Positions 921-32,567 of a stretch of 37,373 nucleotides of DNA are shown here, piece by piece. The DNA is taken from positions 1-37,373 of the forward strand of contig JAZDLW010000017.1 of assembly GCA_043801595.1 (NCBI GenBank), read 5' to 3'. The position numbers and the translations under genes are program-made. The stretch is from Candidatus Aenigmatarchaeota archaeon. Its GTDB lineage: Archaea > Aenigmatarchaeota > Aenigmatarchaeia > JACPZZ01. Position 1 is the stretch's first letter; every line of letters starts with the position of its first letter. The notes under the pieces are model-generated. The model searched no databases, was not told the origin of the DNA, and saw only the letters and a program-made list of their open reading frames with translations.

Positions 921-1046
921 GGGCCGGTAGATCAACGGTAGATCGCCACATTGGCACAAGCCTTTTCTTTCATAAGGAAAAGCCTTGAGGGAAAAGAAAC
1001 GCTTACGACATTGTGGAGGCTTCGGGTTCGAATCCCGACCGGTCCA
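921..1046 (+). tRNA. tRNA-Ala(GGC) with a 54-nt intron at 37/38 (957-1010)
   Basis: Acceptor GGGCCGG/CCGGTCC-A with G3:U70; CCACA-TT-GGC-A|intron|T-TGTGG; T-arm TCGGG-TTCGAAT-CCCGA. Relaxed BHB with inner helix AAGC/GCTT. Confidence 0.93.
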
Positions 1047-6878: not shown

Positions 6879-8147
6879 TTATCGGGAAAACTCTTTCAAA
6901 ACTTTTTGTCCGCTTTTTTGGGGCAGCAATTCCTCATTACCGAACAACGGAACACCGTAAACGCCGTCGTAACCGGGTTTATACTTCAAACCGCTGCGCG
7001 ATTTGATTATTGCGGCCGCGATCCTTTCGTGCGTGACCTTTTTCAGCTCTTCAAAGGAGGCGTCCATTAGAACATTCAGCTCTGTTCCGAACCTTGAAAC
7101 AATTTTATCGTGCTCTTCGGTCACTTTTTTCGAATAAAGCGCGCTCACGCCGGTGACGTGTGATATTATTTCGTACAGCGGCAGCAATGTCTTGAACGGT
7201 ATTGCGGCTTCCGGAACAAAACCCTCGGGTCGATCTGCGAGCTGCTCTACGCGATTTAAAACGCCTATGGTAAGCATCCGCTTGCAGCGCGGGCAGATTC
7301 CATTCATTTTATTCGTTTCCTCCGGATCAAAAGAAACATTGCAATCTCGGTGGCCGTCTACGTGGTATTTTCCGTAATTCGGGTCGACCTCTATCGTATA
7401 GAGGAATTTTTTATTGTCTTTGTTTTTGATAGCGCCGAAAATTTCTTTGTAGTCAGGCGCTTCGAGATCAAAAACATTCGCCTCGCGTCCGAGCCGCCAT
7501 GCCCACGGCGAATGCGAGTCGGAATTCGAAACCAGCGCAAAATCATCGAGGCTTGAAACGCGCCAGTTCATCGCAGGGTCCGAAGACAGGCCTGTCTCAA
7601 CAGCGAATATACGCCTTGTCTGGTCTTCGAAACATTCTTTGACAGAATCAAAGCCGGACATCGAACCGAGCATCGAAAACCAAGGTGTCCATATGTGCGC
7701 TGGTATGATGAAAACGTTCTTTGATATCGACGACATCATCTCGACGAATTCAGGACAGCTTATTTTTGTCAATATCGGCCTGCCGTCAGACGCGAGATTC
7801 CCATATTTGTCCAGCTTCTCATTGATCTGATCAACCGTTTCGAAATCTGGCGCGAATATGATGTTGTGGATTTTTTTCGTGTGCTCCTTGACCCTGTAAA
7901 TCAGAGACACTTCCGATGAAAGCATGAACATGGTTTTGGTTTTTTTATCCGAGAATAATCCCGCATCGTCGATTTTTTCCAGCGATGATTTCAATTCGCG
8001 CAGCTGCAACGGGTGGGTGAAATCGCCGGTTCCGAGAATGTTAAGGCCTTTTATCTCGGCGAACCTGCCGAGGTTCGCTATGTTCATCTGCGGCGAAGTG
8101 GCGCGGCTGTATTTTGAGTGCGAGTGCAAGTCTGCAATGATCTGCAT
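6879..8147 (-). CDS. endoQ: Endonuclease Q (PHP family, deaminated-base repair)
   Basis: Start corrected to ATG 8147 (MQIIADLHSHSKYS). Motifs GTGDFTHP, PAHIWTPWFS, ETGLSSDP, SNSDSHS, GKYH.DGHR.C, CPRC, PGYDGVYG. Confidence 0.92.
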   Translation of the reverse strand: MQIIADLHSHSKYSRATSPQMNIANLGRFAEIKGLNILGTGDFTHPLQLRELKSSLEKIDDAGLFSDKKTKTMFMLSSEVSLIYRVKEHTKKIHNIIFAPDFETVDQINEKLDKYGNLASDGRPILTKISCPEFVEMMSSISKNVFIIPAHIWTPWFSMLGSMSGFDSVKECFEDQTRRIFAVETGLSSDPAMNWRVSSLDDFALVSNSDSHSPWAWRLGREANVFDLEAPDYKEIFGAIKNKDNKKFLYTIEVDPNYGKYHVDGHRDCNVSFDPEETNKMNGICPRCKRMLTIGVLNRVEQLADRPEGFVPEAAIPFKTLLPLYEIISHVTGVSALYSKKVTEEHDKIVSRFGTELNVLMDASFEELKKVTHERIAAAIIKSRSGLKYKPGYDGVYGVPLFGNEELLPQKSGQKVLKEFSR

Positions 8148-8181: not shown

Positions 8182-8317
8182 TGGGCCCGACCGGATTCGA
8201 ACCGGCGACCGTGCCGTTCTTTTACCAAGAATTACGGCGTCTACGCAGCTTAGTTTCGCAAGCAGAAGCTTGCGGGCCTTATAAGACCGTCGCTCTACCA
8301 AGCTGAGCTACAGGCCC
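8182..8317 (-). tRNA. tRNA-Ile(TAT) with two introns: 40 nt at 38/39 (8278-8239) and 22 nt at 44/45 (8232-8211)
   Basis: Removing both introns gives a 74-nt cloverleaf: GGGCCTG TA GCTC AGCTTGGTA GAGC G ACGGT CT TAT AA GCCGT AGGTC GCCGG TTCGAAT CCGGT CGGGCCC A. Both introns have BHB-type junctions. Confidence 0.88.
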
Positions 8318-31961: not shown

Positions 31962-32567
31962 ATGGTCAAAGAAAAAAGGATTGAAGAAAACGAATACGTT
32001 GAAGACAAAAATTTTGCCGAGCTCGGCAAGGCGGAACCGCTTAAAGGCGAGCTTGTAGAGAACAGAATAATCGTTTTTTCGCATCCGATGGTGAACGAGT
32101 TTTTCGAGCACGGCTACGGAAAAATCGTGGAGAACCGCCTTGAACTTGCATTTGTTGAAGCACTCTACCTTGTTGACAAGAATAAACTCGCTGTTGCGCA
32201 CAAAGGCAGGAAGCTCGGCTTTGAAGATTTGATAAAGGCCGGCTTGGAAATAGACAAAGAGCTTCATACAACGTACACCGTTTACAAGGACCTTCGCGAA
32301 CGCGGGTTGACTGTTAAAACCGGCTATAAATTCGGATGTCATTTTCGCGTTTACGAACGAGGCGTAAAAATAAAACGCGGGCCCAAGGAAGCGCACGAAC
32401 ATACGAAATGGATCGCCCACGCTGTTGCAGAAGATTATACCTGCTCTTTTCCGGAATTGTCGCGAGCTGTGCGATTGGCGCATAACATCAGGGCAAAAAT
32501 GCTCTGGGCGATTGTCGACCAGGAAAACGACGTGACATACTATCAGATATTAAGGATACGACCCTAA
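31962..32567 (+). CDS. endA: tRNA-splicing endonuclease, catalytic unit
   Basis: L..VEALYL, VYKDLRERG..VKTGYKFG..FRVY (Tyr), EH (His), RLAHNIRAK (Lys), AIVD...DVTYY. Confidence 0.96.
   Translation: MVKEKRIEENEYVEDKNFAELGKAEPLKGELVENRIIVFSHPMVNEFFEHGYGKIVENRLELAFVEALYLVDKNKLAVAHKGRKLGFEDLIKAGLEIDKELHTTYTVYKDLRERGLTVKTGYKFGCHFRVYERGVKIKRGPKEAHEHTKWIAHAVAEDYTCSFPELSRAVRLAHNIRAKMLWAIVDQENDVTYYQILRIRP

Follow-up and report, generated by a model that had tools for sequence, protein, structure and literature searches.

The ordered removal of multiple introns from one tRNA precursor has been published for archaea, in Thermoproteales and others (PMC3978253, PMC3728597). As described there, a single tRNA gene can carry several BHB-type introns at non-canonical positions, and one splice motif can form only after another intron has been processed. 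Variable-loop introns and multiple introns are likewise established features of tRNA genes (PMC4090602, PMC4033280, PMC3293823, PMC11408192). In the red alga Cyanidioschyzon merolae, RT-PCR on tRNA-Ile(UAU) and tRNA-Phe was described to give an order that follows the free energy of the motifs, the anticodon intron leaving last (PMC3728597). According to PMC5829648, the anticodon intron leaves first in the pre-tRNA-Glu of M. kandleri, and intron position alone therefore sets no rule for the order. Among DPANN archaea, the tRNA-Pro of ARMAN-2 is described with two adjacent introns, at 53/54 and 59/60 (PMC3239211), and α4 splicing endonucleases (EndA) that bear the L3 loop are reported to accompany more disrupted tRNA genes (PMC5829648).

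Here we analyzed a tRNA-Ile(UAU) gene of a Candidatus Aenigmatarchaeota archaeon in a window of 37,373 nt, by which we mean the whole stretch of DNA under study. The host genome (814 kb) is 86% complete. We found no description of tRNA introns in Aenigmatarchaeota in the literature searched, which lay mostly outside subscription journals and bioRxiv supplements.

Results

A tRNA-Ile(UAU) gene with two introns

The gene occupies 8182..8317 on the minus strand, 136 nt including two introns. Its 3' end is the discriminator A73, followed by a T-run, and CCA is absent from the gene sequence. Exon 1 (8279..8317, minus strand, positions 1-38) provides the acceptor 5' strand, the D-arm and the 5' strand of the anticodon stem, with the anticodon UAU at 8283-8281. 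Intron 1 (8239..8278, minus strand, 40 nt) interrupts the gene at position 38/39 and contains a 7-bp hairpin. Exon 2 (8233..8238, minus strand, positions 39-44) is only 6 nt long; it forms the 3' strand of the anticodon stem and doubles as the 5' strand of the central helix of intron 2. Intron 2 (8211..8232, minus strand, 22 nt) lies at position 44/45, and exon 3 (8182..8210, minus strand, positions 45-73) supplies the remaining variable loop, the T-arm and the acceptor 3' strand. Rfam scored an interrupted tRNA at 8317-8182 (minus strand) with 48 bits and two insertions. ARAGORN missed the gene in default mode and miscalled it as Ser in intron mode, and it read the doubly spliced product as a cloverleaf tRNA-Ile(tat). 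Intron removal restores the cloverleaf, and orthologues without introns exist: genome G004 lacks intron 2, and three loci have no anticodon-loop intron. No further copies of either intron sequence were found elsewhere in the host genome. We are nearly certain that both introns are real. An earlier note on this DNA had proposed this layout, with introns of 40 and 22 nt at 38/39 and 44/45 around a 6-nt middle exon, and every element that it named is present in the sequence.

A TIGR00375-like gene, scoring below the cut-off, lies directly downstream (6879-8147, minus strand), and judged by eye such a neighbor also follows the Ile(UAU) gene in several relatives. Other tRNA genes of the genome are interrupted as well. 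The tRNA-Ala(GGC) gene at 921-1046 (plus strand) has an intron of ~54 nt, whose best register gives three of four central pairs and whose hairpin recurs in another Ala intron and in three more places in the genome. Many more intron-bearing tRNA genes are located on contigs C10, C21, C23, C24 and C30, and a Leu gene (C23, 155684-155849) and a Ser gene (C10, 2203-2322) apparently have two introns each. The same hairpin sequence is common to several introns across isotypes.

The gene shows the DPANN mode of tRNA-Ile(UAU) decoding, a UAU anticodon with TiaS not found. A TiaS domain was found in four archaeal controls and in none of the eight family genomes searched (65-91% complete). Of 12,219 Ile codons counted in stop-free frames at least 300 codons long, 6,058 are AUA. 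Because TiaS was not found and AUA makes up about half of the counted Ile codons, tRNA-Ile(UAU) is likely essential, as described for ARMAN (PMC3239211).

The splice motifs and their overlap

The central helix of intron 2, GCCG/CGGC, is fully Watson-Crick paired (4/4) and is flanked by the 3-nt bulges TAA and ACG, each cut after its second base. The inner helix has 5 bp. The outer helix has 3 bp, in which the three final bases of intron 1 pair with positions 46-48. As long as intron 1 is in place, both flanking helices exist and intron 2 is a strict hBHBh' motif; after intron 1 has gone, the outer helix falls to 0 bp and a relaxed HBh' motif is left. The borrowed trinucleotide is GAC (8239..8241, minus strand), which forms the end of the central helix and the 3' bulge of intron 1 and also pairs with 8209-8207 as the outer helix of intron 2. 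This sharing, claimed in the earlier note, was borne out by parsing the sequence.

In intron 1, positions 33-36 (8284-8281) pair with 8241..8244 (minus strand) in the central helix TTAT/GTAG, which is 4/4 paired with two Watson-Crick and two G-U pairs. The bulges are AAG and ACG, again cut after the second base, and the inner helix GC/GC has 2 bp, all as previously listed. C32 is opposite C40 and leaves intron 1 without an adjacent outer pair (0 bp), and its motif is therefore a relaxed HBh' and not a full BHB. The two motifs have four bases in common, namely the G closing the intron 1 central helix, the A-C of the intron 1 bulge and G39. They can therefore never both be fully formed together, as the earlier note had argued. 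Its further point, that intron 1 needs G39-T43 and that the intron 2 helix sequesters this stretch, stands in part: the direct clash includes G39, whereas a need for all of G39-T43 would follow from a presumed requirement for the anticodon stem.

Splice registers were compared at nine placements for each intron. For intron 2, 44/45 was the sole register with 4/4 central pairs, and an equally good motif arose in 19 of 200,000 shuffles. For intron 1, in which 679 of 200,000 shuffles were equally good, 38/39 and 33/34 both gave 4/4 central pairs, and an inner helix was present at 38/39 only. Cutting at 33/34 would change the anticodon to UAG, and ARAGORN reads the resulting product as tRNA-Leu(tag). 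However, the 33/34 register has neither an inner nor an outer helix. Archaeal tRNA-Leu has a long variable arm, which this product lacks and which is found in another, Leu(UAG)-like gene on C21. Moreover, relatives without the intron have UAU. On these grounds the Leu(UAG) register was rejected. The exons are nearly invariant among orthologues while the introns vary, which argues against any other register and against a dead gene; that the gene is a pseudogene or is spliced in another register is hardly credible.

A canonical 37/38 intron of 33 nt within intron 1 (central helix 4/4, inner 1, outer 0) was also rejected, as seven surplus bases would remain, fewer than a BHB intron needs. The 33 bases downstream of position 37 (8279-8247, minus strand) resemble a complete 37/38 intron, with ends as in loci L012 and L124, and are followed by a 38/39-type tail. 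The resemblance is a hint that the intron may have slid from 37/38 by acquiring a new 3' end. A similar 4-mer occurs in 14 of the 57 introns at 38/39 described below.

Distribution of the introns in relatives

Orthologues were searched for by DNA comparison across 61 genomes and were found in four members of the genus. Both introns are carried by three of these (G001, G005 and G006) and by a metagenome locus, L218. Over the resulting five alleles, intron 2 ranges from 22 to 50 nt, its central helix is invariant (5/5), and pairs 3 and 4 of its inner helix show compensatory changes (C-G to G-C; T-A, C-G, A-T). The fourth member, G004, lacks intron 2 at exactly 44/45 and has introns at 29/30, 38/39 and 59/60 instead. 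A metagenome pattern scan gave one true orthologue among 79 matches, and another flagged locus proved not to be a tRNA. The gene was not found in G002 and G003 (82-83% complete) by the pattern used.

To the class as a whole we applied an anticodon-arm pattern, which had matches in 149 of 371 genomes, part of them by chance. Thirty loci, 60 further regions and the earlier loci yielded 95 distinct parsed loci, with nine skipped. There were 57 loci with a 38/39 intron, 35 with a 37/38 intron and three without an anticodon-loop intron, all three with A38 and the anticodon UAU. Of the 38 loci that have a 37/38 intron or none, 37 carry A at position 38. The last base of the 38/39 introns is A in 44, T in nine and C in four; since it varies, as a bulged intron base may, against a near-invariant A38, this base belongs to the intron. 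The 3' strand of the central helix reads GTA(A/G) in 52 of the 57. In 38 related 38/39 introns the central helix was 4/4 in every case and the inner helix 2/2 in 26, counts that are partly circular as loci were assigned by the better register. The 38/39 intron of one Ile(UAU) locus, L088 (G282:C58:8315-8700), is extended at the 3' end by an additional hairpin block, which may be another intron lying in tandem or nested at that junction.

An intron at 44/45 is, among the loci parsed, confined to this genus, and several others have a 45/46 intron alongside an anticodon-loop intron. In a TopoVI-B tree (392 columns, 8 genomes), the host genome branches as sister to the other members of the genus, G004 among them (support 76 for protein, 88 for DNA). 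Because the host genome is outermost and G004 nested, intron 2 likely arose on the stem of the genus and disappeared again in G004, as read from a one-gene tree in which the exact position of G004 is weak. The TopoVI-B genes themselves (L142-L144; G005:C2, G004:C15) have large in-frame inserts, one in G005 and two in G004, which are likely inteins.

Folding of the precursor and the order of splicing

In the predicted fold of the precursor, the central helix of intron 2 has a probability of 0.99 and its borrowed outer helix 0.84, and the intron 1 central helix, the anticodon stem and the D-stem are all near 0. For intron 2, a slipped 5-bp helix dominates (0.77), and the register that can be cleaved takes up a minor share (0.21). 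Forming the splice motif costs +1.0 kcal/mol for intron 2 versus +14.7 kcal/mol for intron 1, and the five alleles agree (1.0-1.1 versus 14.3-15.2 kcal/mol). Since the more stable motif in the precursor is that of intron 2, the model predicts that intron 2 leaves first. This is the order that the earlier note had proposed, and we think it likely.

Removing intron 2 relieves intron 1 only slightly. Its motif still costs 12.1 kcal/mol afterwards, a relief of 2.6 without constraints, because intron 1 remains paired with the D-arm and in its local hairpin. A segment of intron 1 (8246..8253, minus strand) is complementary to the D-arm of the same tRNA (C13-G19) and is the predicted chief competitor of the motif. 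When the D-stem was held, the cost was 9.4 kcal/mol with intron 2 and 9.5 without; when the anticodon stem was required in addition and intron 2 was gone, it was 10.5 kcal/mol. The relief is thus 0-3 kcal/mol overall and 0-1 with the D-stem held. The dead-end 37/38 register of intron 1 is cheaper (10.4-10.6 kcal/mol), and the folding model therefore leaves the selection of intron 1 unexplained. Co-transcriptional cutting of intron 1 is disfavored, as its motif cost 11-15 kcal/mol at each of five transcript lengths and no early window appeared.

The D-arm-complementary segment (8253-8246) is retained in the genus, and several relatives show 9-12 bp of such complementarity. Class-wide, complementarity was not above that of shuffles (mean z -0.10 for 42 introns at 38/39 and -0.24 for 24 at 37/38) in a test on introns with the motif ends trimmed, which removes part of the helix of this gene. 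A z below -2 was seen in two of the 42 and two of the 24, and this gene scored +0.9. By this test, D-arm complementarity was rejected as a class-wide selected feature.

It could be argued that there is no set order, or that intron 1 goes first, with the enzyme shaping each motif by induced fit. By nearest-neighbor energies, motifs at 38/39 are rated costly throughout the class (1.4-11.0 kcal/mol, median 6.9, in 38 loci folded as a shorter construct, in which this gene gave 11.4). These introns must be removed despite the high computed cost, and therefore the model may not predict the choice of the enzyme. In addition, the minimal motif of intron 1 is no dearer for the presence of intron 2 when the D-stem is held. 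Against this, in each of the five alleles the two motifs differ by 8-14 kcal/mol under either condition, and the published intermediates, as described in PMC3728597, track motif stability. A free or reversed order is thus rather improbable.

The order could instead be set by a strict interlock, along the lines of the earlier note. On such a reading, intron 2 would be cleavable solely in the complete hBHBh' form with the borrowed end of intron 1, and intron 1 only afterwards; an intron-1-first path would be a dead end, and GAC would be under selection. The predicted borrowed helix is consistent with this, and it can form in all five intron 2 alleles, one of which (L218) was found by a pattern containing that helix. 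A C ending a 38/39 intron was seen in this genus only (the four of 57 parsed, plus G004), and the sister genus (G007) has a T there and no intron 2. The one-gene tree puts the final C and intron 2 together on the genus stem. However, a joint origin counts as a single evolutionary event, and G004 retains the C without intron 2. As to energy, the intron 2 motif is dearer by 1.5-2.4 kcal/mol without intron 1, yet its relaxed form still costs 3.2 kcal/mol here and 2.5-3.4 across alleles, so in the model intron 2 stays accessible without intron 1. Replacing the final C by T raises the cost of intron 2 by 0.9-2.1 kcal/mol, and replacing it by A, the commonest final base of 38/39 introns in the class, raises it from 1.0 to 1.1 here and by 0-0.1 over the alleles. 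Classical α4 enzymes are described as strict (PMC5829648), but the 45/46 introns of L056, L120 and L123 have an outer helix of 1 bp (three further loci were unparsed). The enzyme of this genus must also cut the relaxed intron 1 motif and relaxed T-loop introns with three of four central pairs.

Together with the small relief of intron 1, the negligible effect of the C to A change and the 1-bp outer helices do not uphold the interlock as what sets the order. The order is likely a strong preference set by motif stability in the model and not mainly by the interlock. The borrowed GAC would help the cutting of intron 2 but is likely not required. Both the strict interlock and a strict dependence on GAC are unlikely.

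The splicing enzymes

The window contains a single-unit, α4-like EndA of 201 aa (31962..32567, plus strand). The gene had been named in the earlier note, and the assignment is supported by TIGR00324 (109.7 bits against a cut-off of 59.6) and by both EndA domains, PF01974 and PF02778, above curated cut-offs. Its nearest relatives are 80-83% identical and mostly from Candidatus Aenigmatarchaeota, and each of the eight family genomes has one match. The best structural-database match by sequence is M. jannaschii EndA (1a79, E 4e-32). Compared with 1a79, the protein has a basic insertion of 6 aa between Tyr131 and His147, which aligns without gaps to N. equitans EndA (3iey_A) and marks an L3-type loop. 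Tyr131 and His147 of the canonical Tyr-His-Lys triad are present, and the lysine position is Ala178. Among the 29 sequences parsed of the 30 best EndA matches in the 61 genomes, this position is Ala in 27 and Thr in two, and a loop lysine, Lys142, is present in 29 of 29. The catalytic triad is described as conserved (PMC6379350). Alanine at the lysine is described to inactivate the ARMAN-2 and A. fulgidus enzymes (PMC12397907), and for this reason the activity of the present EndA is a presumption. It likely cuts both introns. RtcB was found in the same genome, on C5. Four genomes of the class (G014, G027, G045 and G057) have a second, ~400-aa EndA-like frame beside the short one, and in G021, G033, G039 and G051 the long form was the only one found with this query.

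Discussion

Combining the motif analysis and the folding predictions, we consider it probable that one EndA cuts the two BHB-type introns, that RtcB does the joining, and that intron 2 goes first by virtue of its motif stability. In the precursor, the 3' end of intron 2 is predicted to out-pair the anticodon stem, with three more pairs coming from the tail of intron 1 to give a near-ready full motif. Meanwhile, pairing with the D-arm and the local hairpin would hold intron 1. EndA would likely cut intron 2, and RtcB would ligate the 44/45 junction. We assume, outside the computation, that the ligated variable loop could then form the tRNA tertiary core, which would restore the D-arm and the anticodon stem. 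EndA might then take the weak, relaxed motif of intron 1. The energy shortfall of intron 1 would presumably be made up by the tertiary fold that follows the first ligation or by binding of the enzyme.

A more elaborate scheme goes beyond the strict interlock. The 38/39 intron would be a transient splint, its tail completing the strict 44/45 motif and keeping the D-arm open until the 44/45 intron is cut, in a selected, obligatory two-state RNA switch served by a homotetrameric EndA in which an L3-loop lysine replaces the catalytic one. This is slightly less likely still than the interlock itself.

The locus could be useful. The 136-nt precursor exists in several natural versions (both introns; only intron 1; additional introns at 29/30 or 59/60). 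They make it easy to ask whether motif stability or strict dependence determines the order of splicing in archaea, and how strict and relaxed motifs are dealt with by a single-unit EndA that lacks the triad lysine. In practical terms, ARAGORN misses or miscalls the gene although it serves about half of the counted Ile codons.

The comparison with known systems places the gene among described ones. Like the tRNA genes of Thermoproteales and others, it has several BHB-type introns at non-canonical positions. Those organisms have an (αβ)2 EndA, whereas the present EndA has a single unit and belongs to a DPANN genome of Aenigmatarchaeota type. Compared through the descriptions in PMC3978253 and PMC3728597, the present introns differ in being 6 nt apart and in that the motif predicted to be cut first borrows its outer helix from the neighboring intron. 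The C. merolae tRNA-Ile(UAU) is of the same isotype and has several introns and the order predicted here; as described, it is eukaryotic, with independent motifs and the anticodon intron at 37/38, in contrast to the overlapping motifs and 38/39 position here. ARMAN resembles our archaeon as a DPANN lineage with a UAU anticodon, TiaS not found and an intron in tRNA-Ile(UAU) (PMC3239211). Unlike here, ARMAN-2 tRNA-Ile is described with one intron, at 37/38, and its EndA is a three-unit ε2 enzyme with an intact Tyr-His-Lys triad (PMC3239211). The EndA is closest by sequence to the α4 enzyme of M. jannaschii and shares the basic insertion with that of N. equitans (PMC5829648), and it differs from both in having alanine at the triad lysine position. 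The tRNA-Ile(UAU) gene is therefore a new example of known multi-intron, ordered-splicing behavior and not a new kind of system.
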